Assembly (NCBI GenBank): GCA_016190005.1
Contig: JACPRK010000139.1
Coordinates: 24,717-88,716 of the forward strand
Length of the DNA stretch: 64,000 nt
Source of the DNA: Candidatus Wallbacteria bacterium
Lineage (GTDB): Bacteria > Muiribacteriota > UBA6191 > JACPRK01
Direction of reading: 5' to 3'
Shown here: piece after piece, positions 11,861 to 50,523 of the stretch
How the letters are laid out: every line of letters begins with the position of its first letter
Position numbering within the stretch: position 1 is the stretch's first letter
Made by a program: the position numbers and the translations under genes
The notes under the pieces: generated by a model
What the model was told of the DNA's origin: nothing
Database searches by the model: none
Seen by the model: only the letters and a program-made list of their open reading frames with translations

Positions 11861-14362
11861 GTGACCTACGACGAAAACACGACGTATCACACGCCCCGCC
11901 TGTCCCTGGTCGAAAGGCAAGGAACGGCGCTCGCCATCGACGGCGAGACACCCAACTGGATCGCGACCGACAGCCGCGGCGCCCGGCTGCTCGCGTTGCT
12001 CGACGGAAGACGCAGGCTGGCCGAGGTCGTGCGCGCTTATGGCGCCTCCGAGGGCCTCGATACCGCGCGAGCCTGGACCCACGTCCATGACTTCACGCGC
12101 GGTCTGGAGCGTCTCGGAATCGCGTCCCGTAGCGCCCACGTGACGGCGCCCTACCCAGGCCGGGCCTCGGCGTTGCGGCTGGAGCGTCTGTCGGAGCTCT
12201 GGCTCCACACCAACAACAACTGCAACCTGGAGTGCGCTCACTGCCTGGTCAACTCCGGCCCCGCGGGAGAGAGAGGCCTCCCGGGCAAGGCTCTCCGGGA
12301 CGTCCTCGCTCAGGCGCACGCTCTGGGTGTCCGCCGGTTCTACTTCACGGGCGGAGAACCGTTCGCTCGTCCGGACATCTTCGAGCTCATCGAGGTCGCG
12401 ACGAGGGAGCTGGACGGAGAGCTGATCCTCCTGACGAATGCCACGCTGCTCGAAGGTAAGCGGCTCCTGAAGCTGGGTGAGATGGACCGCCAGCGGCTGA
12501 GGCTTCAGGTGAGCCTGGATGGGGCCAGCGCCCGGACCAACGATCCGCTTCGCGGGCGCGGGACGTTCGACTCGATTTGCGCGGGACTGACCCGTGTCGC
12601 CGGGCTGGGATTTCCGGTGACCGTCACGAGCGTCGTGACGCGCGGGAACATCGATGAACTGCCGGGTCTCGTGGGGCTGGCCCGCTCCCTGGGTGTCTCC
12701 GACATCCACCTGATGTGGCTGCACAAGCGTGGCCGCGCGGCGACGGACGGCGGCTTGCACTTCCCCTCGACAGGCGAGCTCGTCAGGCTCACGCGCCGCA
12801 TGAGAGCCCTGGGACAGTCGGAAGGGATCGTGATCGACAACTGCAGCTCCGCGCGCTACCACGTCAACGGCCGCCCTGGGCTCAGGTACGACCTGGGCAA
12901 CCAGGGCTGGGAAAGCCTCTGCATCTACGCGGACGGCAACGTCTATCCGTCGGCCGCGCTCGCCAACCACCGGCCTCTGCGCTTCGGAAACGTGTTGGAA
13001 GAGCGGCTGGAGCGGATCTGGCGCGACAGCCCCACGGCTCGCGAAATCCGCGGGGCCTCGGTGCAGCGCAAGAGCGGCGCTCATGGAGACTTCCTGAAGT
13101 TCTTCACTGGCGGCGGAGACATCGAGCACAGCTACCTCTTCAGCGAGGCGAGGCTCGGCACGGGCAGCTTCCTGGCGGAGGACCCCTACTACGAACTGGC
13201 TCGGGAGCTGGCGCTGGATGCCATGTTCGAGCTGGCGGCCGAGGGCAAGCAAGCGTCGAACGGACGCTCGGGCTACGGCGCGCCTCCCATCTACCACGCG
13301 ATGGGACACGGGACCGTGGTGTGCGGGGCGGACGACATCGACGTGAGCTCCGACCAGGAGGTCCGAACGCTGCACTCCAACTGCGTCCTCGGCTTCGACG
13401 TCGAGAGGCCGCATCGAATCGTCGAGCAGTTCTACGGCGAGGCCGCCAGCGATCCCAAGCCGGGCCTCTGCTGTCCCGAGAGCTTCTCGAGGGAGGACGT
13501 ATCGCATATTCCGGCGGCGGTGCTGGAGCGGGCGTTCGGTTGCGGCTCGCCCGTGACGTTGGCTGGCGTTCGGGTAGGAGAGACAGTGCTCGACATGGGC
13601 AGCGGCGGAGGCATCGATTGCTTCATAGCTTCCCGCAAGGTCGGCGAGACGGGCGCGGTCATCGGCGTCGATATGACTGAGAAGATGCTCCAGGTCGCAA
13701 TGGAGAACTTGCCTCTGGTGGCCGGTGAACTGGGCTACCGAAACGTCGAGTTCCGCAAGGGGTATCTGGAGCGGGTGCCGGTGGATGCCGGCTCGGTGGA
13801 CCTGGTCACGTCCAACTGCGTCATCAACCTGTCACCGGACAAGCGGGCAGTCTTCTCGGAGATGTGGCGAGTGCTGAAGGATCACGGCCGGGTGGTCGTG
13901 AGCGATATCGTCAGTGAGGGGTCCGTGCCGGCGCACCTCAGAGTGAACTCCACGCTCTGGGGTGAGTGCCTGGGAGGGGCTCTTTCGGAGGACGAGTTTC
14001 TCGGAATGCTCGAGGCCGCGGGCTTTTACGGCATCTCTCTTCTGAAGAAGACGTTCTGGCAGGAGGTAGCCGGCTACCGGTTCCATTCGATCACGGTGCG
14101 CGGGTACAAGTTCGAAAAGAAGGCTGGCTGCGATTTCGTCGGCCAATGGGCGATCTACCAGGGGCCGTACAAGGCCGTCGTCGACGAGGAAGGACACCTC
14201 TTTCCGAGGGGGGAGGCCATCGAGATCTGCACCGATACGGCCGCCAAGCTGGAGAGGATGCCCTACGCGGGCTCGTTCACTCTGATCGGCCAGGCCGTCG
14301 AGGGCCGCACGAGCTCGCAGCAGGACACGCCCTGCTGCGAGCCCGGCGGAAGGTGCTGCTAG
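11861..14362 (+). CDS. radical SAM / SPASM-domain protein fused to an ArsM-type arsenite S-adenosylmethionine methyltransferase
   Basis: AAGGAG RBS before GTG 11861. CNLECAHC radical-SAM cluster motif. The C-terminal domain has ArsM hallmarks: GCGSP, the SAM motif VLDMGSGGGID, SNCVINLSPDK and LWGECLGGAL (the conserved catalytic cysteines). The last residues are Cys-rich (CCEPGGRCC). Confidence 0.8.
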   Translation: MTYDENTTYHTPRLSLVERQGTALAIDGETPNWIATDSRGARLLALLDGRRRLAEVVRAYGASEGLDTARAWTHVHDFTRGLERLGIASRSAHVTAPYPGRASALRLERLSELWLHTNNNCNLECAHCLVNSGPAGERGLPGKALRDVLAQAHALGVRRFYFTGGEPFARPDIFELIEVATRELDGELILLTNATLLEGKRLLKLGEMDRQRLRLQVSLDGASARTNDPLRGRGTFDSICAGLTRVAGLGFPVTVTSVVTRGNIDELPGLVGLARSLGVSDIHLMWLHKRGRAATDGGLHFPSTGELVRLTRRMRALGQSEGIVIDNCSSARYHVNGRPGLRYDLGNQGWESLCIYADGNVYPSAALANHRPLRFGNVLEERLERIWRDSPTAREIRGASVQRKSGAHGDFLKFFTGGGDIEHSYLFSEARLGTGSFLAEDPYYELARELALDAMFELAAEGKQASNGRSGYGAPPIYHAMGHGTVVCGADDIDVSSDQEVRTLHSNCVLGFDVERPHRIVEQFYGEAASDPKPGLCCPESFSREDVSHIPAAVLERAFGCGSPVTLAGVRVGETVLDMGSGGGIDCFIASRKVGETGAVIGVDMTEKMLQVAMENLPLVAGELGYRNVEFRKGYLERVPVDAGSVDLVTSNCVINLSPDKRAVFSEMWRVLKDHGRVVVSDIVSEGSVPAHLRVNSTLWGECLGGALSEDEFLGMLEAAGFYGISLLKKTFWQEVAGYRFHSITVRGYKFEKKAGCDFVGQWAIYQGPYKAVVDEEGHLFPRGEAIEICTDTAAKLERMPYAGSFTLIGQAVEGRTSSQQDTPCCEPGGRCC

Positions 14363-23400: not shown

Positions 23401-24237
23401 TCACGAAGTCTCGATCCGGGAGAAGTAGCCATCTTCGATCCAGTCCTGAGACCACCTCCGAAGTCTCGCGGAGAGCTCGTCGGGCTCCAGAGCCGCGTCG
23501 CGTTGCACCTTCTTCATCGCCTTGGCAAGGCACCGGCCCTGCACGAGCAGGCTCAGCAACCTGTATTCGTCCTGAGAGAGCTCCCTTCTCCAGACGCTCC
23601 AGTTCTTGCGATAGAGGACCGTGAAACTGGGGGCCGCGTCCGGCAAGGGAACGGACTCTCCACGCTTGACCGCCTGCAAGTAGGCGTTGACCGGGTACCC
23701 GAAGGCGCGCAACTGCAGCGTGGGAGCGGCGATGAAGACCGCGCCGCTCCAGTCGGCCGGACGCAGCGTCGCCAGCCCGCGCGCATCGAACGGACCCGGC
23801 TCCTCTGCGTCAAAGACGAGCGTCATCGCAAGCTCGAGCTCGGCCAGATCCGCGAGTACCGCACAGCTTTTCAGGTCACGGAGTGAACGGAGAAAACGAG
23901 GGAGGTGACGACCGAGCTGATTGAGGTTGGGATGAACAGACGGGTACGCCCGGATGTACTCGTCGACGAGCGACTTCCATGCCTCGGCACCGAGCGCGTC
24001 TTTCAACACGGGATAGTCCGTCGCCAGGGCATCTCGCATCCTGAGGGGGTACATCTGTGCGTAGACGGCCAGGCGATCGACAGGCTGCAGTCTGGCCGCG
24101 GGCAAGACGATCTCCTCAGCGCGGGCATCCAGGTGTCGTCGCGCATCGTCGGAATCGACTCCGCACCACGCGCAGTGAGGATGGGTCAGGACAGCCTGCA
24201 TCCATCCTTGGAGCTGACGAAGGGAGGGCTCAGCCAT
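23401..24237 (-). CDS. DUF2063-family protein, partner of the MNIO enzyme (BufC/MbnC-like)
   Basis: Immediately downstream of the DUF692 gene, overlapping by about 8 nt. N-terminal LRQLQGWMQAVL is typical of DUF2063. Confidence 0.7.
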   Translation of the reverse strand: MAEPSLRQLQGWMQAVLTHPHCAWCGVDSDDARRHLDARAEEIVLPAARLQPVDRLAVYAQMYPLRMRDALATDYPVLKDALGAEAWKSLVDEYIRAYPSVHPNLNQLGRHLPRFLRSLRDLKSCAVLADLAELELAMTLVFDAEEPGPFDARGLATLRPADWSGAVFIAAPTLQLRAFGYPVNAYLQAVKRGESVPLPDAAPSFTVLYRKNWSVWRRELSQDEYRLLSLLVQGRCLAKAMKKVQRDAALEPDELSARLRRWSQDWIEDGYFSRIETS

Positions 24238-25095
24238 GGACGGCCTCCGCTCGCAGTGGGGCCGAATCCGTGAGAGGACGGCCGTGACGCGCCTTCATCG
24301 CCTCGGCCAGGAGCACGTCGAAGGGCGGAATGTCCGCGTCCCACTCGTAGATGGTGGTGCGTCCTCCGCTCAGACGGGTCGCAAGCTCGTGGAGCGCCCA
24401 CACCCCGGGGAGCGCGTGGTCCGAGTGGGTGTCGATCAGGTGGGTGCCAACGTCGGTGTGGCCGGCCATATGGAAGTAGCCGACTCGCTCCCACGGGACG
24501 GCTTCGAGGTACTCGACCGGGTCGAAGCCGCAATTGACACTCGAGACGTAGACATTGTTGACGTCGATGAGGAGGCCGCAATCGGCCTCGTCGCACATCC
24601 GGGCCAGGAACTCCCACTCGGGCATCGAACTGTGCGTGAACGCCAGGTAGGTCGACGGGTTCTCCAGGAAGAGGGGCCGTTCCAGCAGGTCCTGGACGAT
24701 GCGAATCCTCGCCACGACGTGCGCAAGCGTCTGCTCGTCGTAGGGCAGCGGCAACAGGTCGTGGAGGTTTCGCCCCGCGACCCCGGTCCAGCAGACGTGA
24801 TCGGAGACCATCCTGGCGCGCGTTCGATCGGCCAGCGCCTTGACGCGTCTGACGTAGGCGCGATCCAGAAGGTCGGTGCTGCCGATGGAGAGGGAAACTC
24901 CGTGCATCACCACAGGGTAGCGGGCGGCCACCCGATCCAGCACGTGGAGCGGGCGCCCCCCCGTGTCGAGATAGTTGTCGGTGAGGACCTCGAACAGATC
25001 GACGGCCGGCCAGTGCGCGAGGACGTGGCCGTAATGGACCGTCCGGAGGCCGACGCCGACTCCCAGGTCGGTGGCAATGGACTGAATGGAGGACA
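24230..25095 (-). CDS. MNIO (multinuclear non-heme iron oxidative) enzyme, DUF692/UPF0276, BufB/MbnB-like
   Basis: MSSIQSIATDLGVGVGLRTVHYGHVL...TDNYLDTGG...HGVSLSIGSTD...ENPSTYL...HMAGH is the DUF692 TIM-barrel pattern. The ORF track extends it upstream to 25441, but that extension is an alternate-frame artefact of the precursor repeat. Confidence 0.8.
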
Positions 25096-25203
25096 TGAGT
25101 CGGTTTTCAGCGGAAGGAGGGCAGGCGACGGAGCCGGGGGGGATCGAGTGGGGGATGGCCCGCCGCCTGCCTCCAGGTACGGAGCGTTCAGGTGAGAAGG
25201 ACG

Positions 25204-25638
25204 TCAGCCCTTGTGGGGCACGGCACAACCGCCGAGACCCTTGCAGTCGTTCTTGCCCGCGCACTCGTTCTTCTCGGTCTTGCAGCCGCCGAGACCCTTG
25301 CAGTCGTTCTGTCCCTTGCACGCGTGCTTGGCGTCCTGGCTGGCACAGCCGCCCAGGCCCTTGCATTCGTTCTTGCCGGCGCACTCGTGCTTGTCCGTCT
25401 TGCAACCGCCGTGACCCTTGCACGAGTTCAATCCCTTGCACGCGTGGCGATCGGTCTTGGCCTCCTCGCTCGCAGCCTTGCTGGAGCCCTCCCCGGACCG
25501 ATCGGGTGTGCGCTCCGCTGCCGCCGGCGGCTCCTGTGAGCTGCCGCTACCCCCGTCCTGAGAGTAGACCAACCCGGCACCGGCGAGCACACCCGAGGCG
25601 ATCGCGCTGAGCATGAGTGTCTTGTTCCTGCGATTCAT
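25204..25638 (-). CDS. bufferin-like RiPP precursor: Sec signal peptide plus a 12-Cys tandem-repeat core
   Basis: AGGAGG RBS. Signal peptide MNRRNKTLMLSAIASGVLAGAGLVYSQ. The core is HACKGLNSCKGHGGCKTDKHECAGKNECKGLGGCASQDAK + HACKGQNDCKGLGGCKTEKNECAGKNDCKGLGGCAVPHKG, with 12 Cys in CKGxGGC / CAGKNxC repeats. It lies directly upstream of the MNIO and DUF2063 genes. Confidence 0.7.
   Translation of the reverse strand: MNRRNKTLMLSAIASGVLAGAGLVYSQDGGSGSSQEPPAAAERTPDRSGEGSSKAASEEAKTDRHACKGLNSCKGHGGCKTDKHECAGKNECKGLGGCASQDAKHACKGQNDCKGLGGCKTEKNECAGKNDCKGLGGCAVPHKG
25207..25446 (-). repeat. in-frame tandem duplication (2 x ~117 nt) encoding the 6-Cys core unit of the precursor
   Basis: Two near-identical 39-codon units. 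The same repeat produces the spurious overlapping ORFs 25192-25539(+), 25211-25414(+) and the 5-prime extension of ORF 24230-25441(-). Confidence 0.6.
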
Positions 25639-28948: not shown

Positions 28949-30835
28949 ATGCTGAACCTGCTCTTGAAATGCCTCCGAACTCGCGCATCATTACAACCGC
29001 CTCAGCGCCCGGCGTGGTTCGCACTGGCGCTGACCTTCTTGGCTGCAGCGCCGCATGTCGCGGCCGAACCCGTAACCGCATCGCTCGAATTTTCCCGGAA
29101 GGCTGTGCAGCCCGGGCAGACGGTGGAAGGCCTCGTCCGGCTTCGCATCCAGCCGGGCTATCATCTCTACGGCCCGGACGAGACGCAGGGCTTGCCGACC
29201 GCGGTGAAGCTCGTGGTGCCTGCCGGGGTCACAGTGAGCGCGCCGCGCTTCCCGGCGCCGCGAGAGGCCCATTACGAGGCGCTCGGCGGCAAGCTGAGGC
29301 TCTACGAGGATGATATCGCCGTCGGGTTCACGCTCGAGGTAGCGCCGGCGTTTTCCGGCAGCCGCGTAGGTGTGAGCGCGTTGCTCGATTACCAGCCCTG
29401 CACCGATCGCATTTGCGAGCGACCGCGGCAAGGCGTCGAAGCGAGTGCCGGGCTTCCGGTGGTGAGCGTGGCGGCAGCTGCGTCCGCCGACTCGCCCGAG
29501 TTGCCGGGCTCGCCGCTCAGGCAAAACCCTCTACGTGTCGCGCTCGACCGTGGCCTGTTGTGGGCGCTGCTCGCGGCGTTCGGCTGGGGCATCGCGGCCA
29601 GCTTCAGCCCCTGCGTCTATCCGATGATCCCGATCACGGTCTCCTACTTCGGCGGGCAATCGAAGTCCGGAAGCACCGCCCGCAGGGTAGCCCTCGCCTG
29701 TACTTACGTGCTCGGCATGGTCACCACCTACACGGCGGCCGGGGTGGCGGCGGCAAGGATGGGGCGAGACCTGGGAGCCGTCATGGCCAATCCGTGGATG
29801 ATCGGCTCTCTGTCCCTCGTGCTGGTCGCGCTGGCCGGATCGATGTTCGGACTGTATGTGCTTCAACTGCCGCGGGCGCTGACCGGCCGACTGCAGGCCG
29901 ACGACCGCGGTGGCTTTCTCGAAGCTTTCTTCCTGGGGCTGGTCCTGGGCTTCGTGGCGGCGCCCTGCGTGGGACCCTTCGCGGGCAGCATCCTCGTCTT
30001 CGTTGCCCAGTCCGCGGATCCGCTCGTTGGCTCCCTGACGCTGTTCAGCTTCGGCCTCGGGATGGGGATGCTCTTCATCGCCATCGCCGTGTCTTCGGGC
30101 ACCCTTGCGCTGATGCCGCGATCGGGCAAGTGGCTGCTCGCGCTGGAACGCTTCTTCGGGTACGTGCTGATCGGCATGGCGATTTACCTGGTTTCGAATG
30201 TCGTCGCGGCATCGGTGGCGACCTGGTTGTTCGGCGCCTACCTGGTCGCCGGCGGGACGTACCTGGGCGCCTTCATGCCCGTGCCAGCCGGGGCAAGCGG
30301 CTGGACACGGATGACCCAGGCCGCGGCGATCGTCATGGCTTCGACAGGCGTAGCCACCGTCATGTCGGGTACACCGTGGAACGGCGCCTTGCGCGAGGCA
30401 GCACGGCATGAGGCGGCCACGAACGGACGCGTGCTCGCCGAAGAGAGTGAAGGCATCCGCTGGTTCCGTTCACTCGAGGAGGCCAGGACCGAAGCCACCC
30501 GGACCGGCAAGCCGATCTTCGCCGATTTCTACGCAGACTGGTGTGTGCCTTGCCGCCTGATGGACCGCACGACGTTTCGAGATTCCCGGGTCGTGAAGGC
30601 CATGGAAGCGTTCATCGCCCTGAAAGCAGACTGTACGCAGCCGAAGATGCCGGCGGCCCGTTACAAGAATGACGTGTTGAAGTCCCCCGTCATGCCCTAC
30701 CTGGCCTTCTTCGGCCCGGCCGGCAACCCGCTTCCCGCCGATTCCATCGAGGGCTATACCGATGCTTCCGAGCTGCTCGCCGCGCTACATTCCGTCGCTG
30801 GGCGCTTTCAGCCACACCGGCAAGACCGCCAATGA
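28949..30835 (+). CDS. dsbD: thiol:disulfide interchange protein DsbD (alpha, CcdA-like transmembrane and thioredoxin domains)
   Basis: Periplasmic N-terminal domain with ...YQPCTDRICERP. Transmembrane core with SFSPCVYPMIPI and AAPCVGPF Cys motifs. C-terminal thioredoxin motif ADWCVPCRLMD. Confidence 0.85.
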   Translation: MLNLLLKCLRTRASLQPPQRPAWFALALTFLAAAPHVAAEPVTASLEFSRKAVQPGQTVEGLVRLRIQPGYHLYGPDETQGLPTAVKLVVPAGVTVSAPRFPAPREAHYEALGGKLRLYEDDIAVGFTLEVAPAFSGSRVGVSALLDYQPCTDRICERPRQGVEASAGLPVVSVAAAASADSPELPGSPLRQNPLRVALDRGLLWALLAAFGWGIAASFSPCVYPMIPITVSYFGGQSKSGSTARRVALACTYVLGMVTTYTAAGVAAARMGRDLGAVMANPWMIGSLSLVLVALAGSMFGLYVLQLPRALTGRLQADDRGGFLEAFFLGLVLGFVAAPCVGPFAGSILVFVAQSADPLVGSLTLFSFGLGMGMLFIAIAVSSGTLALMPRSGKWLLALERFFGYVLIGMAIYLVSNVVAASVATWLFGAYLVAGGTYLGAFMPVPAGASGWTRMTQAAAIVMASTGVATVMSGTPWNGALREAARHEAATNGRVLAEESEGIRWFRSLEEARTEATRTGKPIFADFYADWCVPCRLMDRTTFRDSRVVKAMEAFIALKADCTQPKMPAARYKNDVLKSPVMPYLAFFGPAGNPLPADSIEGYTDASELLAALHSVAGRFQPHRQDRQ

Positions 30836-31371: not shown

Positions 31372-31926
31372 TCACGAGCCGGCCTCGCGGTCGCCGCCGG
31401 AGCCGGCGGGATAGTCGTCCATGGAGCGCCTCCTGCGAGGCGGCTCCTCGGCCGGTGCCGTTGCTTCCTCCGGCGCGGGAAGCTGCTCGATCCACTCGCT
31501 GACCTGCCGGTGAGCTGCTTTCCCTTCCATCGCCCGGCGTCCCCTGCTGTCGTAGATGACGAAGTGAGGCAGCGCCCGAATGCCGTACTGCTCGGCGACG
31601 GGGGAGCTGAAATCGATGCTCCGTGAGCCGGGCCGGTCGACGTTGATCGTCCTCACGGCGATATCCGCGCGGGCCTCGACCAAGCGCTGCAGCCCGGGCG
31701 CGATAGCCCTGCAGGGCGGGCAGTTGCGGCTGTGGAAGTCGAAGATGGTCATCTTTCCCGGCACTCGATATCGCTCGATGTCGATCTCCAATCCGGCTTC
31801 TCCGATGGCTCCGATCGCCGCCCGGGAGCCGGGTCTCAGCATCTTCGCAGTGTCACCCGAGAACGCCAGGCCGCCCAAGACGGCGAAACCCGCGATCACG
31901 GTCCAGATAGGAACTCTCATTCTCAT
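31372..31926 (-). CDS. thioredoxin-like (TlpA/thiol-disulfide oxidoreductase) protein
   Basis: Signal/anchor N-terminus. Redox motif FHSRNCPPCRAIAP within a thioredoxin fold. Confidence 0.7.
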   Translation of the reverse strand: MRMRVPIWTVIAGFAVLGGLAFSGDTAKMLRPGSRAAIGAIGEAGLEIDIERYRVPGKMTIFDFHSRNCPPCRAIAPGLQRLVEARADIAVRTINVDRPGSRSIDFSSPVAEQYGIRALPHFVIYDSRGRRAMEGKAAHRQVSEWIEQLPAPEEATAPAEEPPRRRRSMDDYPAGSGGDREAGS

Positions 31927-32065: not shown

Positions 32066-33508
32066 TCATGCGGCCAGTGCGGCCGCGTTGCTCGCCGGCA
32101 GCTCCACCTGAAACTTAGTGCCGACACCTACTTCCGAGGAGAATTCGATGGTGCCACCATGGGCGACGACGTGACTCCTGGCGATCGCCAGACCCAGACC
32201 CGTGCCTGCCGGCTTTCCGTGCGTGACGAAAGCATCGAACAGTCGCGGTCTCACTTCGGATGGAACTCCCTTGCCCTCGTCAGCGACTTCGAGCAGGATC
32301 CGATGAGGTTGCGAGTCCAGGCGGACCAGGACTCGGCTGCCGGACGAGCTGGCCTCGATGGAGTTCTTGACGAGGTTGTAGACCACGCGCGCCATCTTGG
32401 TCCGGTCGGCCCGGAGGGATGCGCAGCCCTCAATCTCCGCGACGAGCTTCACACCCCGTTCATCGGCCAGCGGGCGCACGTCGCCGAGAATGTCCTCGAT
32501 GAACTCCACGGCGGCGAACTCGTCGAGATGGAGCGTCATGGAGCCCTGGCTGAAAGCCAGAATGTCGTCCGATAGCTCCGTGATCCGCTCTACCTGTTTG
32601 GCAAGGAGGTGGGCCATCGACTCTCGTCGGGGCCGTTCCTGCTGATCGGAGAGAATCCTGGTCAAGCCAAGGATGTTGGAGAGAGGACCGCGGACGTCGT
32701 GGACGATGGTGGCGACCATGCGACCCACCGAGGCCAGCCGCTCGTGAAGGTGGACGCTCGCGACGGCTTCTTGCATTGCATGGAAGTGTCGGGCTAACCG
32801 GCCGAGCTCCGCCGGCGCGAACAACGGCAGCGGAGGACCGGCGCCACCGTTCGCCGCGGCGTCCATCGCTTCGGCGAGCTGACTCAAGGGGCGAACCAGC
32901 ACGCTGGAGAGGATGCCGCCGAGGAGGATCGCGACGACGAGCCCGGCCAGAGTGACGGTTGCGAGCTCCAGGGCGTCGCGCCGCAGGATCGACCGGATTT
33001 CGCCGGCCTTGTAGTCGGCCTCGAGCAGGGCCACGGTACGCCCGCTGCTGTCCTTTACTGGAGCGTATGCGGACATCCACTCGCCGTACTGATCTTCGTA
33101 GATGCCTGTGCTGGCTGTCACCCCTTGCTCGAAGATGGCGAGCATCTCGGGCCTCAGCTCGTACGGCATGCCTATCTGGGCTTCGTGGCGGGTCCTCACG
33201 ATGAACCGCGTCTGGGAGCCCTCGCGCACCAGCGTGTAGATCTCGGTGTTCAGGCCGTTGCCTTGCTCAATCCGACGCAAATAGCCGGCGAGCTTCCTGA
33301 AGTTGGCGCAGCTGCGGTCGCGGCACTTGGCGAGCTCGGCATGGGCCTCACCGTCGAGGGCTTCCGCCGCCGTCACGGCTATCGAGAGTAGCCGGTCCTG
33401 GGCGAGTCGCGTGAGATGTTGCGACTCGCGACGCAGGTGCAGCAGCCCGGTCGTGACGGCGAAGAGAAGTAGCAGCCCTGCGCTCAGCCCAACAATCCTG
33501 ATATGCAT
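32066..33508 (-). CDS. sensor histidine kinase, paralog 1, intact
   Basis: Transmembrane helix, periplasmic sensor region, second transmembrane helix. H-box IVHDVRGPLSNI. HATPase_c N, G1 and G2 motifs (VYNLVKNSIEA, DEGKGVP, GTGLGLAIARS). Confidence 0.85.
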   Translation of the reverse strand: MHIRIVGLSAGLLLLFAVTTGLLHLRRESQHLTRLAQDRLLSIAVTAAEALDGEAHAELAKCRDRSCANFRKLAGYLRRIEQGNGLNTEIYTLVREGSQTRFIVRTRHEAQIGMPYELRPEMLAIFEQGVTASTGIYEDQYGEWMSAYAPVKDSSGRTVALLEADYKAGEIRSILRRDALELATVTLAGLVVAILLGGILSSVLVRPLSQLAEAMDAAANGGAGPPLPLFAPAELGRLARHFHAMQEAVASVHLHERLASVGRMVATIVHDVRGPLSNILGLTRILSDQQERPRRESMAHLLAKQVERITELSDDILAFSQGSMTLHLDEFAAVEFIEDILGDVRPLADERGVKLVAEIEGCASLRADRTKMARVVYNLVKNSIEASSSGSRVLVRLDSQPHRILLEVADEGKGVPSEVRPRLFDAFVTHGKPAGTGLGLAIARSHVVAHGGTIEFSSEVGVGTKFQVELPASNAAALAA

Positions 33509-34731: not shown

Positions 34732-35979
34732 TCATAGGCCGCAGCAAGAGTCCCCCTGCTGGGTCGCGCCAGCTTCCAGCAGCGTGGCCTGGTAGCCGGC
34801 CTGGCGGACAGCCTCTCTGAGAGCCTGGATGTTTGGCTTCGGACCGGCGGCCGCGAAACCGACCCGGGCGGTCTTCGTGGGGTAATCGACTGCGGCATTG
34901 AGGACCCCCGGAACGCTCAGGAGAGCCTTCCGAACGTGGGCGGTGCACGCTTCGCAGGACATGCCGCCGATGGACAGCGCCTGCTGCCCGGCGGCGACAC
35001 CGGCCGCCGGCGCGGCGGGCGCGTCGCTGATTCCAATGAGACTGCCCGCATAGTGGGGAAACGCTGCGCCTACGATGGCAAGGAAAGTGGCGAGCCAGAG
35101 CCCCATGCGCCCGAGGCGCCGGGTCCTGGGCGCGGGGACGGCACATGCCTCACCCGATGCACATGCCCGTTCACGGGAGTAAGCGAAGTAGAAGCCCGCG
35201 GCCAGAAGCAGTCCGGTGAGCGTCAGAAAGAGCGGGCGCCATTGCTCGAAGACGGCCCCGGCTCCGGCAGCAGACAGACCCAGGCCGACGAGCATCAGCG
35301 GCAGCCAGCAACACGCGGAGGCCACGACGGCGGCAACGACGGAGCCGGCAAGCAGCCAGGATGTCTTCGGGCCGGTCTGGGCGCGGGAGTCTGGCGCGAC
35401 GGTAGACGATTCCTGCCCGGAGACACGGCAGCACGCCTGAATCACCGAGGGTTCTTCCGAGAGAGCCACAGCCGGCCCTCGCTGGTCGGAGGCGACGGAA
35501 TCGGAGCGCGGATCTCCGTGAACCGCCAGCTGTTGACGGACGACCGTTCCCACGTTGCCCAGACAGCATGAGCCTTGCGGGTTCTCGCGCTCGCAGGCGC
35601 ACTGTCCCTCCTTGACCTTCTGCCGGATGTCGTCCGGCACGGTGCTCTTTCCCGTACGGAGAACCTCCTCGCCTATCGAGGCCGCCGAGTGGTTGAAGCA
35701 GTAGCAGACCGGGCAAGAGAGATCGCTCTCTTTCTGCCAGACAGGGACGGCCACGTCGGAGCGAAGAAAGCGCGCCCCCTGGACGGCCCCGAAGTAGACG
35801 ATGTCGCAATTCTGGGCTGGACAGAACCGATACACGCCGCTCCCGACCCTGCCTCGGCAGGGCTCCCTCAAAAGGGAGCTCAAGGTCTCGTTTGCGACGG
35901 TCTTCCCTCGGGTGCCGCAACCGGGACAGTCGGCGGGCGGGCCGCCTGGGGCAGTGATGGAGCAGCACTTTTCGGACAT
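34732..35979 (-). CDS. fusion: N-terminal Cys-rich metal-binding domain + MerT-like transporter + C-terminal MerP-like HMA domain
   Basis: The N-terminal ~150 aa hold 17 Cys (CC, CPGC, CPVCYC, CAC, CC). Transmembrane region with a vicinal Cys pair, ASACCWLPLMLVGLG (MerT-like). C-terminal GMSCEACTAHVRKALLSVPGV is the HMA GMxCxxC motif. The protein ends ...GDSCCGL. Confidence 0.65.
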   Translation of the reverse strand: MSEKCCSITAPGGPPADCPGCGTRGKTVANETLSSLLREPCRGRVGSGVYRFCPAQNCDIVYFGAVQGARFLRSDVAVPVWQKESDLSCPVCYCFNHSAASIGEEVLRTGKSTVPDDIRQKVKEGQCACERENPQGSCCLGNVGTVVRQQLAVHGDPRSDSVASDQRGPAVALSEEPSVIQACCRVSGQESSTVAPDSRAQTGPKTSWLLAGSVVAAVVASACCWLPLMLVGLGLSAAGAGAVFEQWRPLFLTLTGLLLAAGFYFAYSRERACASGEACAVPAPRTRRLGRMGLWLATFLAIVGAAFPHYAGSLIGISDAPAAPAAGVAAGQQALSIGGMSCEACTAHVRKALLSVPGVLNAAVDYPTKTARVGFAAAGPKPNIQALREAVRQAGYQATLLEAGATQQGDSCCGL

Positions 35980-36094: not shown

Positions 36095-36403
36095 TCATGT
36101 TTGCTTCAACAGAGTTGCGAGGACCTGGCTGACCTTTTCGAGGCGTTCGTCGCGGCCGCCTTTCATGCAACTGTCCACGCACGCCTTGAGCTCATGCTCC
36201 AACAGATTGGCTGCGACCTGGTTGAGCGCAGCGCGCACCGCGGCCACCTGCAGGAGAATCTCGTCGGCGCAGCGGTGAGCCAGCACCATGGTCCGCAGTG
36301 AACGCACGTGGCCCTCGATGCGCGCGAGACGGTCGGCGAGCCGCTTCTGGGCGTCTTCGTCTAGATAGGGTTTCGGAACCGGTTTCAGGTGGGACTTGGC
36401 CAT
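36095..36403 (-). CDS. csoR: CsoR/RcnR-family metal-sensing transcriptional repressor
   Basis: GAGGAA RBS. MAKSHL...LARIEGHVRSLRTMVLAHRCADEILLQVAAVRAALNQV...HELKACV matches the DUF156 fold and its metal-ligand positions (C, H, C). Confidence 0.8.
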   Translation of the reverse strand: MAKSHLKPVPKPYLDEDAQKRLADRLARIEGHVRSLRTMVLAHRCADEILLQVAAVRAALNQVAANLLEHELKACVDSCMKGGRDERLEKVSQVLATLLKQT

Positions 36404-36428
36404 TGCGTTCCTCACATCTTGTAGTATA

Positions 36429-36447
36429 TATCCCCCCAGGGGGGATA
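36429..36447. promoter_or_regulatory. perfect inverted repeat TATCCCCCC-A-GGGGGGATA; predicted CsoR/RcnR-type operator
   Basis: 9-bp arms with a 1-bp spacer, about 26 nt upstream of the csoR-like start codon. The G/C-tract palindrome is characteristic of CsoR/RcnR operators. Confidence 0.55.
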
Positions 36448-36636
36448 GCAACCCCTTCTCCTTTCCCACGAAACCGAACCCGAGCGCCTTGGCGAGGTGG
36501 CCGAGCAAAGGGGCTCATTCGTCGTCGCCGCTGGTTAGTGTCGGCTCCAGGGATCGCGCTCGGGCGTTACCCGCACGACCGAAGCTCGTCAGTCCTGCTT
36601 GGGAACTACCTGGGGCACGCCGAAAGGAGGCGCTTC

Positions 36637-37614
36637 ATGCAAACACCCTCTGAGCAGAGCCTCTCGAGTAGAGTGCGAACCCTGCTTCGCGCCGCCATCT
36701 TGTCGCTCGTTCTGGTGGCAGCCCTGCTGCACAGGTTTGCACCAGGGGCGCTCGCGGTCGGTTTGGATCTGACGGATCTGCGAGTCCCTCGAGCGGAGCT
36801 GAGAGGCGGCGGCCCACCGAAGGATGGGATTCCGTCGCTGACGGACCCCGCGGTCGTCAGCCCCGAGCAGGTGGATTTCCTGCAGGAAGACGACTGGGTC
36901 CTCGGTGTCGAGCTCGGTGCCCAGGCGCGGGCCTATCCGCTGAAGCTGCTGACCCAGCACGAGGCCGCCAACGACGTGGTGGGCGGCCAGCCGATCGTCG
37001 CTACCTACTGACCGCTCACCGAGAGCGGGGTGGTCTACTCCGCGCGGCTCGACGGTATGCGGCTGACGTTCGGCATCTCCGGACTCCTCTACCGCAGCAA
37101 CGTCGTGCTTTACGATCGCAGAAGCGGCAGCCTCTGGTCCCAGCTCGCGGGCGCCGCGATATCGGGCAAGTACAGTGGCCGGCAGCTCGTGGAGCTCCCG
37201 TCCCTGGTGACGACCTGGGCGAGCTGGCGCCGTGCACGCCCCGACTCGTCGGTCGCTCTGGCTGCAAGTCTCCGGTACTCGGCCGACCCATACGCCGACT
37301 ATTGGGGCTCGTCCGAAACGATGTTCGACGTGGGCCCCATCGACACGCGATTGCCGGCCAAGGCATTGGTGTTCGGCGCCGTCGTGGGGAAACTCGCGAA
37401 GGCGTATCCACTGAGCGAGTTTCCGTCGACCAACCAAGTTATGCGGGACCGAATCGGCAACGTGAAGGTTTGGCTTTCTCGGGGCGAGACCTCCAGGGAC
37501 TTTCGGATGACGGACTTGACGGGCCGGCGAGTGAGCGGATCGGTCATGTACTGGTTCGCCTGGTCGAAGTTCCATCCGGACACTGCCCTCTGGGCCGGGC
37601 CGGCCGGGCAATGA
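36637..37614 (+). CDS. DUF3179-family protein with in-frame UGA (putative selenocysteine) at the first Cys of the conserved TYCPLC motif
   Basis: AAAGGAGG RBS before ATG 36637. Signal/anchor N-terminus. ...LLTQHEAANDVVGGQPIVATY-[TGA 37009-37011]-PLTESGVVYSARLDGMRLTFGISGLLYRSNVVLYDRRSGSLWSQL continues in the same frame as ORF 37030-37614. A hairpin follows 13 nt downstream. Confidence 0.65.
37025..37043 (+). other. putative bacterial SECIS-like hairpin (stem GCGGGG/CUCCGC, loop UGGUCUA)
   Basis: Starts 13 nt 3-prime of the in-frame UGA. The loop contains GGUCU. Confidence 0.45.
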
Positions 37615-37874
37615 CGAGGCTCGAGCCAGCTCTCCGCTACCGGCCGCTGAACTCCATTCGGCCGCCGCGGTATCAACCCAAGAGGAGCTTCGCCACCATG
37701 GCGGAGAGCGCCAGCGCCAAGGGCAGCGTGAAGATTCACGCGAGCGCGATGTTCGCAGCGAAGAGCACGGGCCCGGCGGTCACGAGACTGGCTGAGAAAC
37801 CATGTCCCAGGCTCATGGCCGTGATGCGCGGGCTCATCGTCGACTACGCGGCGCCGGCGGCGGCCACCCAGCAA

Positions 37875-38678
37875 TCACTTGCCACCCTTGCCGGTTTCAG
37901 AGCCGGCAAGCCTCAGCGCTCGCAGCGCATCTACCACGTCGGCGGGCTCGGAGCGCTGGGTGTAATCCGCGCTCACGAATCGATAGCGGATAACGCCCTC
38001 GCGATCCAGAACGAACGTCCCCGGCACCGGAAGCTCCCCGGAGCGGTCCGCATTGAACTTCGCGAGATCGATGCCGAAGCCGCGGTACATCTCCGCCAGC
38101 TTGGCGGGCACCTGGAAGACGAGACCGAACCCACGCGCCACCTGGTTGCCCAGGTCGCTGAGGACCTCGAAATCCAGCTTGAGCTTCTCCTGCGTCATGA
38201 GCGCGAAGTCGGGCTTCTCGGGCGAGATTGCAACCAGAGAGCCCCCGGCTGCCCGAATGTCGGGCAGGGCTTGTTGCAGAGCATCCAGCTCCGCGTTGCA
38301 GTACGGTCACCAATGCCCTCGGTAGAACGCGACGACCACCGGGCCCTTCGCCAGCAATTCGACCGAGGATACGGTCTTACCGCTCGCGTTAGGCAAGCGA
38401 AAGCCGGGCGCCCTCTGCCCGACCTTCAGGCTCCGTTCCTCGACGCCCGTGCGCCGAACTTCGTCCAGGGCGGCTCGCGCCACCGCGGCCTTCTCCGCGG
38501 GCATCTTCTTCGCCGACTCGCTTCGCATGGCGTCCAGCTTCGAGGCCAGCGGCCGCGGATCTGCCTCGGCCGCCGCGGCCACTGCGCCGGCCGCCAGTAA
38601 CGCCGAAAGCAAAATTCGACTCGAGAGCCCAGTCGTTGTGTCGGTTCCTATCTGCCTGATGGCTTTCGACATGAACAC
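37875..38678 (-). CDS. periplasmic peroxiredoxin-like (AhpC/TSA-Redoxin family) protein with in-frame UGA (putative selenocysteine) in a W-U-P-Y-C motif
   Basis: Signal peptide. ...GPVVVAFYRGHW-[TGA 38309-38307]-PYCNAELDALQQALPDIRAAGGSLVAISPEKPDF...TFVLDREGVIRYRF. ORFs 38307-38678 and 37875-38198 are the same frame, and the region between them is open. A hairpin follows 12 nt downstream. Confidence 0.7.
38276..38294 (-). other. putative bacterial SECIS-like hairpin (stem GCGGAGC/GCUCUGC with one G-U pair, loop UGGAU)
   Basis: Begins 12 nt 3-prime of the UGA in the Prx-like gene. Confidence 0.4.
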
Positions 38679-39003
38679 CTCGCGTTCCTCCGTTTCTCGG
38701 ATCAGTATAGTCGCGGCTTCGTCAACCGAGTCGGCGCCTCAATCCTCGGCGGCCGTGATATCGGCGTTCGCGATCAGTCGTGACCGGCTGAACGTGTCGA
38801 CGAGCGCGCCTGCCCGAGGTAACGCGAGAACGAGACTCGACCGGCGCCGTTACCCGGCTCGTCGTGCGACGTCTTCGAAGGTGATGCCGGAGTTGCTCTT
38901 CAGATGTGTCACCTGCCTTCTGGCACCCTGGATCCTGGTCGCGGCCGCCCTTAAGGGCCGGTGGTTTGTCTGCGACGGGCTAATGCGCCACGAGTAACTC
39001 CCG

Positions 39004-40476
39004 ATGCAGCGGAGAATCGTCGGGCTCAGCCTGGGTCTGATGACGTTCTTTGCGGTCGCGACTGGGGTTTTTCACTATCTGCGAACGTCCACGGACCTCG
39101 AAGCCTTGGCTGACCAGCGCCTGCGGTACATCGCCGCCACGGCCGCGGCGGGCCTGGACGGCGATGCCCACGCGGAGCTCAACAGCTGCCTGGACAATCA
39201 GTGCCCCAACTACGCGAAGCTCACCGAGTACCTTCGAGCCGTCCAGACATAAAATGATCTCTCGACGGAGGTGTACACCCTCGCCCGAGAAGGCGACCGA
39301 ACGCGGTTCGTCTTGAGGACCCAGCACGAAGCCGACTTCGGAGTGTCTTACGATCTGCGTCCGGAGATGTTGGCGACGTTCGACGAGGGCAAGGTCGTCA
39401 CAACCGGTGTCTACTCGGATCGCTACGGCTCCTGGTTGTCGGCCTACGCGCCCGTCCGGAACAAACAGGGGAGGGTCGTCGCCTTGCTGGAAGTCGACTA
39501 CAAGGCCGAGGAGCTTGCTGCCATTCTCCGAAGAGACGCGGCGCAGTCGGCGGTGGTTTGGCTCCTGGGGCTGACGGTCACGGGTCTGCTAGCCCTGCGT
39601 CTTTCGCGGCAGATCGCCGAGCCGCTGACGCATCTGACCGCCGCGGTCGACGCCGCCGCATCCGGAGATGAAAGTCATGAGCTGCCGACCGATGCACCGG
39701 CGGAAATCGGGCTCCTGGTCCGCCGCTTCGGCGAGATGCGAGACGCCGTTGCCAACGCCCGGCGGCAGGAGCGGCTGGCGGTCGTGGGGCAGATGGCCGG
39801 AACGATGATCCACGACCTGCGAGGCCCGCTCACGGTGCTCATGGGAATGACCGAGCTGATGCAGGACGAAGAGGACGGCATCGCGCGAAAGCAGCTCGGT
39901 GTGCGCGTGTTCGAGCACATCAATCGCATCGAGGCGATGGCCCGAGACGTTCTCGACTTCTCGCGGGGTGTGTCGAACATGGAGCGAAGCCGGTTCCGCG
40001 CCGCCTCGGTGCTGGAGTCCGTGGCTGCGGACCTTGCCTCGATTGCGACTAGAAAGGGCGTCGTTCTGCGCGTAGACCCCGAGTGGGACGGGCTCGTCTG
40101 GGGGGACCAGGAGAAGCTGCTCAGGCTCGCCCACAACCTCGTGAAGAACGCGATCGAGGCGACGCCAGCAGGAAGGCGAGTGGTGGTGCGAACGCGCGCC
40201 GGCGCCGGGCGATGGCAGCTTCTCGTGGAGGATGAGGGCACCGGGATTTCACCGCAGGTGGCAGCGAGGCTTTTCGAGCCGTTCGCGACTCATGGAAAGT
40301 CGGGAGGTACGGGGCTGGGTCTGGCGATGGTGAAGAGTGTCGCCGAGACTCACGGAGGAAGCGTCACTCACGCGGCGCGGCCGGGCGGCGGCACGGTTTT
40401 CAGGGTCGAGCTGCCGATCGATCGACGCGAGCCTGGCGGGCAGAAGCAGGAAGCCCGTGAGCAAAAGGCCGCGTGA
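39004..40476 (+). pseudogene. sensor histidine kinase, paralog 2, interrupted by an in-frame TAA at 39250-39252
   Basis: 39004-39252 and 39271-40476 are co-linear with paralog 1: ...YLRAVQT-TAA-NDLSTEVYTLAREG against ...YLRRIEQGNGLNTEIYTLVREG. The stop falls where paralog 1 has Gly/Gln. Downstream H-box and ATPase motifs are intact. Confidence 0.55.
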
Positions 40477-40608
40477 CGCCGGCAAAGCGTTACCCGGCGC
40501 GCGAGGCGGCGTCGAGTCGGCAACTGATCCCGCGAAATCGACGTCGCCGCCGCAGGCGCCCGAGCCTTGCTTCACCGGCGCCGGTCCCGGCCTTCCGCGG
40601 AGGGAGCA

Positions 40609-41196
40609 TCAAGCCGCGGGACGTTTCCTGCGAAGCCGTTTGCCAGCCTCCGGCTCCGCCCAATCGGACTCCAGCTCCACGCCGAGGCCGAGGGCCAGTC
40701 GATTGACGAAGTTGAAGTACGCTGTCACCGCGGCAATGTCGTGAATCGACCGGTCATCGTGCCCGATCTGACGCAGCAGCTCCACGTCGGCTCTCCTCAT
40801 CTCGGCAGGCGTGCGGGTGAGTTTCACCGCGAAATGCAGCATGGCCAGATTAGCCGGCTCCAGACGTGCGGTGCGGAAGTCGCGAGCGATCGCCTCGACG
40901 AGATCCTCGTCGCGGGTGAGACGGAGAAGGACCTCTCCGTGATGCTGCAGTCAGTAGTGGCAGTCGTTGGCCTGCGAAACCACGACCGCGATCATCTCGC
41001 GCTGGCGGCGCGTGAGCGGCGAGCCTCCGAACATCAATGCCTTGTAGAGCGCCATGTGCCCCTCCATCCCTTCCGGATGGACGCCGCTGACGGCCAGGAT
41101 GGCGGGGGCGCTGGCCTGGTCGCCCAGGAGACGTTTGTACGTCTCCTTCAAACGGACCGGGGCTTCGGATGGTTGAATCTCCGTTATCCACGACAT
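40609..41196 (-). CDS. AhpD-like / carboxymuconolactone-decarboxylase-family peroxidase-related protein with in-frame UGA (putative selenocysteine) in a C-H-Y-U motif
   Basis: ...MIAVVVSQANDCHY-[TGA 40953-40951]-LQHHGEVLLRLTRDEDLVEAIARDFRTARLEPANLAMLHFAV... ORFs 40951-41196 and 40609-40842 share a frame, which is open across the gap. A hairpin follows 10 nt downstream. Confidence 0.7.
40921..40940 (-). other. putative bacterial SECIS-like hairpin (7-bp Watson-Crick stem ACGGAGA/UCUCCGU, loop GGUCCU)
   Basis: Begins 10 nt 3-prime of the UGA in the AhpD-like gene. The loop contains GGUC. Confidence 0.45.
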
Positions 41197-49123: not shown

Positions 49124-49966
49124 TCAACCCTTTCGACCGCTTTTTCCCGGCTCGGGTAACGCCCCCGTGCGCGCACGAACGAGGACATAGCCGCCATGCG
49201 GCTCCCGCCAGATCACGACCTCGCACGGAGATCTCGACGCGGCCGGAGACGCAGGGTGCACCACCCGGCGGCTCGTCAGGGAACCGACGCCGAAATCCTC
49301 GAGCCGCAGTTGAAACAGAGACTCCGGGCCGCCCGGTCCCTGCCAGTACGTGTAGGCCACCGGGTGGCTGCCCAGCCGGCACGAGCGGCCGCCCATGAGC
49401 GTGTGCCCGGGTCCGAGTGCCGGGAAGCTCACGGGGAAGCCCATCGAGCTCGACAAGAACTCGGCGACCTGCCGGGGGTCGGAGCCCTTCACCTGCAGAT
49501 GGGGCGTGTTCATGTGATCCTGGGTCGCCAGCAGGGCCAGCGTCTGAAGCGTGGCCTCCTTGTCCGACCGGAGGCTCGAGATCCCGAACCAGACCATCAG
49601 GACCACCAACGCGATCGACGACGCCAGCGCGAGTCGGCGCCCGGCGAAGAGGCCCAGCGACCTCATGCGTCCAGGCGGTCGCGAATCCAGTCTCTGCACC
49701 TGCGGTTCCGCTCCGGCCTCGGGGGGGGCGCATTGGTCCGCAAGCAAGAGCAGCCGCGGCACCAGTCCGGGGGGCACTTCGACCTGCCTCAGCGCGATGC
49801 GCAAGGCCTCGTCCCCACGGATGAGCTCGAGCCATTCCTGCCGGGCCCACTCCGGACCGCGCGCCACGTCTTGCTCCAGTTGACGGCGCACTGGATCATC
49901 GGGCGGCAAGACCGAAGCCTCGGCCATCGCTTGCCGCAGAAGCTGTCGATCGTCGCGGCCGCTCAT
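49124..49966 (-). CDS. anti-sigma factor-like protein with periplasmic C-terminal domain
   Basis: Overlaps the sigma-factor stop by 4 nt. A central transmembrane helix LALASSIALVVLMVWFGI. Position and architecture are typical of ECF anti-sigma factors. Confidence 0.5.
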   Translation of the reverse strand: MSGRDDRQLLRQAMAEASVLPPDDPVRRQLEQDVARGPEWARQEWLELIRGDEALRIALRQVEVPPGLVPRLLLLADQCAPPEAGAEPQVQRLDSRPPGRMRSLGLFAGRRLALASSIALVVLMVWFGISSLRSDKEATLQTLALLATQDHMNTPHLQVKGSDPRQVAEFLSSSMGFPVSFPALGPGHTLMGGRSCRLGSHPVAYTYWQGPGGPESLFQLRLEDFGVGSLTSRRVVHPASPAASRSPCEVVIWREPHGGYVLVRARTGALPEPGKSGRKG

Positions 49967-50523
49967 GGACTCCTCCGCTTCAAGGTAAGAACGTTACCCC
50001 GTTTGCCGGCGCTGTCGTCAAGCCGCTGTCGCAAGAAGCTACGGGCCCGGTGGACCCGAGAGAGCACCGTGCCCAGGGGCAGGTCGAGCTCTCGGGCCGT
50101 CTCCCGGCAACTGACTCCCAGTAACAGGACCATCAGAAACGGGAGCTTGAACCGATCGTCCATGGCGTCGAGTGCCGCTTGCAGCGGCTCCGAGCATTCC
50201 GAATCACCCTCCGACGCGTCCCGTGTGGGCGTGTCGGCGTCCTGGAGCAGCTCGACACTGTCGTCGACCTGGGGACGCCGTCCGAGATCGCGCAGCAGGT
50301 GCGCGTGGCGGAATCGCAGGATTCGGAATAGCCATGCCCGAGCGGAGGACGGTTCCCGCAGATCCGGCAGCGAACGCCAGGCTTCGGTGAAGGTCTCCTG
50401 GACCAGATCCTCCGCTGTTTCGCGGCGGCCCGTCAATCGGAAGGCGATCCGGAAGAGCTCCTCGGAGTGGTCGCGGACGAGCCGTTCGAAGAGGGGCCGG
50501 AGCTCGTTGGGAACGGTCTGCAT
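49963..50523 (-). CDS. ECF-type RNA polymerase sigma factor
   Basis: DLVQETFTEAWRSLPDL...RAWLFRILRFRHAHLLR (region 2) and FLMVLLLGVSCRETARELDLPLGTVLSRVHRARSFLRQRL (region 4). Confidence 0.8.
   Translation of the reverse strand: MQTVPNELRPLFERLVRDHSEELFRIAFRLTGRRETAEDLVQETFTEAWRSLPDLREPSSARAWLFRILRFRHAHLLRDLGRRPQVDDSVELLQDADTPTRDASEGDSECSEPLQAALDAMDDRFKLPFLMVLLLGVSCRETARELDLPLGTVLSRVHRARSFLRQRLDDSAGKRGNVLTLKRRSP

Follow-up and report, generated by a model that had tools for sequence, protein, structure and literature searches.

Does an in-frame TGA in a redoxin-like gene of Candidatus Wallbacteria end the protein, or does it encode selenocysteine (Sec, U)? The question is raised by a gene at 37875-38678 of the 64-kb stretch of DNA analysed here (hereafter, the window), which a preliminary description had read as a periplasmic peroxiredoxin-like protein with TGA in place of a Cys of its W-C-P-Y-C active site. 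That span is correct and the gene lies on the minus strand; a plus-strand translation of 37875-38678 is meaningless, yields no sensible protein and was rejected. Read from 38678 to 37875, the minus strand holds a single 267-codon frame, Sec included, with one internal TGA (38309..38307) and a terminal TGA (37877..37875). Around the internal TGA the frame reads ...GPVVVAFYRGHW-TGA-PYCNAELDALQQ..., and the codons after it begin PYCNAELDAL. Our analysis indicates that the gene very probably encodes a genuine selenoprotein of the peroxiredoxin-like (Prx-like) UxxC family, with Sec insertion directed by a Sec insertion sequence (SECIS) element. The deposited GenBank record MBI2944918.1 (38672..38310, minus strand), named 'redoxin domain-containing protein' and taken from a 99,956-bp contig of a metagenome-assembled genome (MAG) labelled Candidatus Wallbacteria bacterium, covers only the 121-aa N-terminal fragment. 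The public annotation wrongly ends the protein at the Sec codon.

Homology across the TGA and family membership

With Cys put in for the TGA, the translated gene matched the Pfam family AhpC-TSA (PF00578) with E=1.9e-27 and 96.1 bits, where the cutoff is 26, over residues 84-230 (ATG numbering), that is, on both sides of the TGA, and Redoxin at 64 bits. The two halves also found the same relative separately. The N-terminal 121 residues alone aligned with residues 1-73 of the closest homologue, P0001 (E=7e-26), and the C-terminal 143 residues alone with its residues 75-207 (63% identity, E=5e-60), so that the sole P0001 residue lying between the half-matches is Cys74. Among the best 120 full-length homologues, which are named 'peroxiredoxin-like family protein' and measure 215-279 aa apart from one 390-aa fusion protein, every one has W-C-P-[YF]-C at this place (Tyr in 119, Phe in 1). 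The proposal that TGA replaces a Cys of W-C-P-Y-C is borne out by these homologues and by the skipped Cys74. It had been open to refutation if the closest homologues ended here or if the downstream frame lacked redoxin-fold homology; the homologues continue past the TGA site, and the downstream frame shows strong redoxin homology.

Relatives that share the TGA are numerous. Species-representative genomes, one for each species, were searched with the degenerate pattern Y-R-G-x-W-TGA-P-Y-C; at least 120 stretches matched, where by our own estimate chance would give about four. Represented among those listed are Acidobacteriota, Gemmatimonadota, Chloroflexota, Desulfobacterota/Geobacter, Myxococcota, Alpha-, Beta- and Gammaproteobacteria, Actinomycetota and others, and in every listed genomic match free of contig-end interruption the frame stays open for 105-200 codons past the TGA. 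About 29 of the at least 120 listed stretches are orthologue-level, with 40-53% identity to the window protein, and the best Sec-form relative among the matches listed, from a Geobacter sp. MAG (L024), is 50% identical (E=1e-76). A protein-guided scan of metagenome contigs gave 80 relatives, 22 of them TGA forms and 58 Cys forms.

The preliminary description was right to invoke a known bacterial selenoprotein family (PMC1088965, PMC2398784, PMC13188914). The Prx-like UxxC family, also treated in PMC1794560, was defined by a thioredoxin-like UxxC motif as opposed to TxxU (PMC1088965), has members in the genomes of Geobacter, Syntrophus and Desulfotalea (PMC1794560), and is entered in a 2026 review as 'Prx-like thiol:disulfide oxidoreductase, PF00578, UxxC/UxxU' (PMC13188914). 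The window gene combines the PF00578 score, a UxxC aligned with the first Cys of CxxC, and Sec orthologues whose ORF (open reading frame) runs past the TGA. It is very probably a Prx-like thiol:disulfide oxidoreductase (Prx-like 1) selenoprotein, of a family known since about 2004-2005 that is also represented in the Sargasso Sea/Global Ocean Sampling metagenomes. It shares the PF00578/UxxC make-up of that family and has relatives that include Geobacter, but it differs in coming from a Candidatus Wallbacteria MAG, in being at most about 53% identical to any Sec form retrieved, and in bearing a signal-peptide-like leader that 27 of 30 Sec orthologues do not have. What is new here is one more member of an abundant family known for some two decades, as is expected for a Sec-using bacterium; the value lies mainly in annotation, with the possible export of a Sec form as a modest twist.

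Some of the metagenome contigs carry paralogues. On contig WNFR01038956.1 (L141) a TGA form and a Cys form stand about 1.5 kb apart (at ~1728 and ~3253), and three others (L161, L176 and L180) have two Cys-form paralogues each. Sec/Cys pairs of this kind may serve the study of Sec-Cys exchange in the Prx-like family.

The hairpin downstream of the UGA

In the mRNA, a hairpin begins 12 nt past the UGA. Folding gave a 7-bp stem, GCGGAGC/GCUCUGC (38294..38288 paired with 38282..38276), closed by the 5-nt loop UGGAU (38287..38283). The published description of bacterial SECIS (bSECIS) elements asks for an apical loop of 3-9 nt, an upper stem of 4-16 bp, a minimum free energy of -7.5 kcal/mol or lower, a G in the loop, and a defined UGA-loop spacing (PMC13188914). 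All four of these constraints describe the present hairpin, with its 5-nt loop on a 7-bp stem, its G at loop position 2 followed by another G, its 19 nt between UGA and loop, and its -11.2 kcal/mol when folded by itself. Under a strict, no-bulge version of the rules, 52% of TGA forms passed compared with 5% of Cys forms (p=7e-11).

The hairpin has been kept specifically where the TGA is present. In the 30 aligned TGA-form orthologues, loop position 2 (alignment column 24) is G without exception (30/30), standard pairs fill 83% of the cells over the seven stem pairs (30-52% once the 3' side is shifted by 1-3 columns), and double-sided, compensatory changes occur at five of the seven. Shuffled alignments equalled the observed double-sided counts in 1/500 cases for pairs and 0/500 for cells. 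With the register kept constant, the 52 TGA forms made on average 6.2 of the 7 pairs at -11.2 kcal/mol, and the 58 Cys forms 3.3 of 7 at -5.3 kcal/mol; Cys forms lack the structure even when they encode an identical peptide. The codons tell the same story when the comparison is limited to sequences encoding ..E-L-x-A-L, which removes the protein-level confound: Glu6 is GAG in 36/37 Sec forms but 7/14 Cys forms (p=2e-4), Leu7 is CUG in 37/37 but 3/14 (p=8e-9), and Ala9 is GCU in 35/37 but 4/14 (p=4e-6), counts that are not phylogenetically independent and to that extent speak against our account, while the direction and size of the codon effect are unambiguous.

A covariance model of 25 positions, built from 29 genomic orthologues with the window left out, found a lone strong match in the 64 kb, scoring 33.6 bits (E~2e-8) over minus-strand positions 38297..38273; the runner-up scored 16.7 bits. 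On held-out metagenome loci, all 22 TGA forms scored 20-36 bits (18 of them at least 29), whereas the top score of a held-out Cys form was 25.3 bits and most gave no match. The covariance scan that had been suggested as a check thus places its score exactly on the hairpin with loop UGGAU that had been noted 12 nt downstream, and by covariation, by the Sec-versus-Cys controls and by the model this hairpin behaves as a SECIS. Recoding of the UGA, with the hairpin as a putative bacterial SECIS, is supported by this comparative evidence. The signature GAG-CUG-Gnn-GCU-CUR can be reused for the family, and even so small a covariance model parts TGA from Cys forms.

Like SECIS elements of the Escherichia coli fdhF/fdnG type (the bSECISearch model), the window hairpin is a coding-region stem-loop just past the UGA with a small loop and G-G at positions 2-3; it differs in having no primary-sequence similarity to them, and no bulged U was identified in it. 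Two side observations concern the folding searches. The runner-up covariance match (40993-41017, plus strand, rough E~0.009) lies opposite an AhpD-like gene and is most likely due to chance. A second, very stable hairpin, UGCCCGA-CAU-UCGGGCA, occupies 38250-38266 on the minus strand, 43 nt past the UGA; no counterpart was seen there among the orthologue folds inspected, and it is probably incidental in a GC-rich gene.

Following the established mechanism, the mRNA hairpin 12 nt downstream would act as a bacterial SECIS by recruiting SelB-GTP-Sec-tRNASec to the ribosome, and the UGA at 38309..38307 would be recoded to Sec during translation. The product is predicted to have a BCP/AhpE-like thioredoxin fold, with Sec124 just ahead of the active-site helix and Cys127 in its first turn. 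Fold and motif together suggest that Sec124 may be the nucleophile attacking an oxidised substrate (disulfide, sulfenate or peroxide), and that it would then form a selenenylsulfide with Cys127, to be re-reduced by an upstream thiol reductant. The leader, as read by inspection, would take the catalytic domain to the periplasmic side, whether cleaved or retained as an anchor, where electrons from a DsbD-type importer, such as that encoded at a distance of 7 kb, could maintain the protein in reduced form.

Catalytic position, location and rival readings

Alignment of the family profile with BCP/PrxQ structures set f-Y-R-G-g-W-C-P-Y-C against F-Y-P-A-A-F-T-Q-V-C (2ywn) and F-F-P-A-A-F-S-P-V-C (2cx3). 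In this register the Sec, or first Cys, falls on the Thr/Ser of the peroxiredoxin (Prx) motif P-x-x-x-T-x-x-C, and the retained second Cys (Cys127) on the peroxidatic Cys. The Prx Pro has become an invariant Arg in the family and the Prx catalytic Arg ('rAvFVID' in 2ywn) a Pro or Gly, and the true-peroxiredoxin combination of P-x-x-x-T/S-x-x-C(U) with Arg is not present in the family. ResA-type W-C-x-x-C oxidoreductases match the profile nearly as well as BCP/PrxQ. The preliminary description had called the replaced Cys 'peroxidatic or nucleophilic': on the profile alignment the second term holds, as this is the N-terminal, thioredoxin-type nucleophile at the Prx Thr position, and the first does not. 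With this refinement of the catalytic position, the observation as a whole is confirmed and its interpretation supported.

The AhpC/TSA-Redoxin fold that had been proposed is upheld by Pfam, by profile alignments to PDB entries and by structural matches of an AlphaFold model of P0001. In that model (predicted local distance difference test, pLDDT, 90; predicted template modelling score, pTM, 0.87), Cys74, the Sec equivalent, sits just ahead of helix 75-93 and Cys77 in the first turn of the helix, and the top structural neighbours are BcpB, Bcp4, AhpE, PrxQ and ResA, at identities of 27% or less. BCP/PrxQ and AhpE (2ywn, 2cx3, 5epf, 1xvw) have the same fold (Foldseek E~1e-14 and a template modelling score to target of ~0.9 for the P0001 model; profile E=4.6e-20), but the window family has R, U/C and P/G where they have the catalytic Pro, Thr and Arg, uses CxxC/UxxC as its redox centre, and carries an insertion of some 27 residues between profile positions 175 and 202. 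Every NCBIfam model scored below its cutoff: BCP (47.6 against 140), SelL-related (NF040769; 43.4/120), ResA (41.3/170), DsbE (27.2/123), PrxU (23.8/270) and AhpC (16.4/272). PrxU (NF040737, TxxU) is likewise a selenoprotein of the AhpC/TSA superfamily, but there Sec is the peroxidatic residue, whereas in the window protein it stands three residues earlier (UxxC). The extracytoplasmic thiol-disulfide oxidoreductases of the ResA, TlpA and CcmG (DsbE) type share the thioredoxin fold with W-C-x-x-C; they have an N-terminal anchor or signal, which the leader of the window protein would match, have a reductive role facing the periplasm and draw electrons from DsbD/CcdA. Selenoproteins of these types are not known in the architecture of the window protein, whose ResA and DsbE scores also fall far short of the NCBIfam cutoffs and whose gene has no adjacent cytochrome c maturation genes. 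Because the catalytic Pro, Thr and Arg of peroxiredoxins are absent, the sequence makes a thioredoxin-type thiol/selenol-disulfide oxidoreductase more likely than a classical peroxiredoxin.

By inspection, the leader has a basic n-region, a 16-residue hydrophobic stretch, ILLSALLAAGAVAAAA, and then AAA|EA, with a putative A-x-A cleavage site before E38; it has no twin-arginine motif and no lipobox. Its maximum Kyte-Doolittle value over a 15-residue window is 2.35, and it aligns with the leaders of many Cys homologues of ~250 aa. A signal peptide of the general secretory type or a signal anchor is plausible, and a periplasmic location appears rather likely, although it is the least secure step of our account. 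The signal peptide of the preliminary description is thus recovered in its features, by eye; 'periplasmic' is a plausible extension, atypical for Sec orthologues. The organism is diderm, with genes for a TonB receptor, a porin, OEP and an RND (resistance-nodulation-division) pump, and extracytoplasmic selenoproteins with signal peptides have precedent (bioRxiv 10.1101/2022.07.06.499078).

Several further results weigh on the other side. RNAalifold returned no consensus structure on the 48-column alignment, and explicit pair counting was used in its place. No matching SECIS family was found with Rfam, either over the whole window at the gathering threshold or over 36900-41100 at E<=10, an uninformative null, given the poor coverage of bacterial SECIS elements in that database. 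None of selA, selB, selC or selD lies within the 64-kb window. The structural model is that of a Cys homologue 60% identical to the window protein, not of the window protein itself. The leader was judged by eye, and 27 of the 30 Sec-form orthologues start directly at the mature domain (M-S-L...); apart from the window gene, only L058 clearly bears a leader, and possibly L113, which is borderline. DsbD shows no conserved association with the Prx-like gene across ~200 other loci. Finally, no substrate is known to have been demonstrated for any member of the Prx-like family, and the proposed chemistry is accordingly drawn from fold and motif.

How do the alternatives fare? That the TGA is a genuine stop, in a truncated gene or pseudogene, or an assembly or sequencing error for TGC or TGT, would sit well with the 121-aa fragment of the deposited record, with TGA as the ordinary stop of most window genes and with the missing Sec machinery. 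Yet downstream 143 codons are open and 63% identical to a homologue, the hairpin carries the synonymous codons GAG, CUG and GCU specific to Sec forms, which a random TGC-to-TGA error would not bring, its 33.6-bit covariance score is typical of TGA and not of Cys forms, and two more selenoprotein genes lie within 2.6 kb. We consider this reading very improbable, and a SECIS-directed selenoprotein far better supported. Greater weight, if still on the unlikely side, belongs to a true selenium-dependent peroxidase, in which Sec124 would be oxidised by H2O2 or an organic hydroperoxide to a selenenic acid and resolved by Cys127, as in GPx- or PrxU-like enzymes, for periplasmic peroxide detoxification instead of disulfide exchange. 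Sec reacts readily with peroxides, and the fold and best structural matches are those of the peroxiredoxins BCP, AhpE and PrxQ; but Sec occupies the Prx Thr position, not the peroxidatic one, the Pro and Arg of peroxiredoxins have given way to other residues, thiol-disulfide oxidoreductases of the ResA type match about equally, and the NCBIfam equivalogs, BCP and PrxU among them, stay far below cutoff. An AhpD-like selenoprotein gene lies nearby, and adjacency of Prx-like and AhpD-like genes is on record (PMC2398784, PMC13188914), but it occurred in only 2 of ~200 Prx-like loci.

The protein, or at least its catalytic domain, might also be cytoplasmic, if the hydrophobic N-terminus were not an export signal, either because the true start lies downstream or because it forms an inward-facing anchor. 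Besides the leaderless majority of Sec-form orthologues, the closest homologue P0001 is leaderless too. Opposed to these are a GGAGG that precedes the GTG at 38678 by 8 nt, a GenBank start that is also upstream of the hydrophobic segment, the n/h/c architecture of the leader with its A-x-A site, the alignment of the leader with those found in many Cys homologues of ~250 aa, and a second clear leader-bearing Sec form. A cytoplasmic location thus seems to us doubtful, slightly more so than peroxidase chemistry, and we retain export of a thiol/selenol-disulfide oxidoreductase as the preferred reading.

Neighbouring selenoprotein genes and other features of the window

Table 1. Coordinates within the window of the Prx-like selenoprotein gene and its elements
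Feature	Coordinates	Strand	Basis and remarks
Complete selenoprotein gene	37875..38678	-	GTG start 38678..38676, end TGA 37877..37875; translation, Pfam, both halves against P0001
Alternative ATG start	38672..38670	-	Two codons past GTG
Shine-Dalgarno-like GGAGG (putative)	38687..38691	-	8 nt 5' of GTG; sequence reading
N-terminal leader, residues 1-37	38568..38678	-	Sequence inspection, Kyte-Doolittle, alignment with Cys-homologue leaders
AhpC/TSA (peroxiredoxin-like thioredoxin-fold) domain	37983..38423	-	PF00578; PDB profile matches BCP/PrxQ, AhpE, ResA; P0001 model
In-frame TGA = Sec, U124 (GTG numbering), first position of U-P-Y-C	38307..38309	-	Cys in 120/120 best homologues; Cys74 of P0001
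TGC, partner (resolving) Cys127 of U-P-Y-C	38298..38300	-	Translation, profile alignment
Bacterial SECIS hairpin (candidate)	38276..38294	-	Folding, covariation, Sec-versus-Cys controls, covariance model, bSECIS constraints

Two other TGA-containing genes of known selenoprotein families lie within 2.6 kb of the Prx-like gene. The DUF3179 gene (36637-37614, plus strand) has an in-frame TGA at 37009-37011 in the context T-Y-U-P-L-T, where members of its family usually have Cys; on read-through it matched Pfam at E=6.9e-73, and a bSECIS-compliant hairpin (-10.0 kcal/mol) follows at 21-nt spacing. The AhpD-like/CMD gene (40609-41196, minus strand; PF02627, E=1.2e-12) has its TGA at 40951-40953, in C-H-Y-U-L-Q-H-H (CxxU), and a bSECIS-compliant hairpin, ACGGAGA-GGUC-CUUCUCCGU, with 18 nt from UGA to the GGUC loop. 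Both families appear in the same 2026 review, as 'DUF3179, UxxC/T' and 'AhpD-like, CxxU' (PMC13188914). Since both neighbours have their TGA at the known Sec position of a known selenoprotein family, each with a compliant hairpin behind it, the organism evidently uses Sec; and since TGA otherwise serves as a stop more often than any other codon, ending most window genes, recoding is site-specific and the code is not reassigned. GenBank has probably missed the selenoproteins in both of these genes as well. With three or more selenoproteins in one 4.6-kb stretch missed publicly, the selenoproteome of the lineage would be under-reported.

Other candidates for Sec use in the window fell away. An 87-nt tRNA-Cys(GCA) called by ARAGORN at 50130-50216 (minus strand) was considered as tRNA-Sec-like and judged a false positive: it gave no Rfam tRNA or tRNA-Sec match at E<=1, its stems are mismatched, and it lies inside an extracytoplasmic function (ECF)-type sigma-like ORF (49963-50523). 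The remaining in-frame TGAs that composition had flagged (11103, 23401 and 51572) have no redox context and look like ordinary gene ends or off-frame artefacts; gene finding based on third-position G+C (GC3) discriminates weakly at 65% G+C.

A full-length DsbD (28949-30835, plus strand) and a thioredoxin-like gene (31372-31926, minus strand) are encoded 6-9 kb from the Prx-like gene. One may speculate that the exported Prx-like UxxC protein, a membrane-bound or exported DUF3179 protein (UxxT) and the AhpD-like protein (CxxU) form an extracytoplasmic selenium redox module, fed with electrons by the nearby DsbD and under metal or oxidative stress control, the last because a CsoR-type repressor, a CopZ-MerT-HMA fusion and two histidine kinases are found in the same 12 kb. 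We regard such a module as improbable, more so than peroxidase chemistry or a cytoplasmic location; if true, it would constitute a periplasmic selenoprotein defence island not yet described. In ~200 other loci the DUF3179, AhpD-like, MerT-like and DsbD genes were almost never beside the Prx-like gene, and operon-based functional inference was dropped because the neighbourhood is not conserved there.

The metal and redox genes nearby comprise a histidine kinase (32066-33508), a zf_CopZ-MerT-HMA fusion (34732-35979) and a metal-sensing repressor of the CsoR/RcnR type (36095-36508), all on the minus strand. An 82-aa ORF (39004-39252, plus strand) ends in TAA, and a HAMP-HisKA-HATPase histidine kinase (39271-40476, plus strand) comes next without a change of frame. 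The same arrangement occurs on an independent Logan contig (L001), and it could represent a split sensor kinase or two genes. Farther away, the window encodes a RiPP (ribosomally synthesised and post-translationally modified peptide)-modification enzyme of the MbnB/TglH/ChrH family (24230-25441, minus strand; E=1.9e-99) and a large radical-SAM/SPASM-methyltransferase fusion (11861-14362, plus strand), two loci that may serve natural-product synthesis or peptide modification and have no connection with the Prx-like gene.

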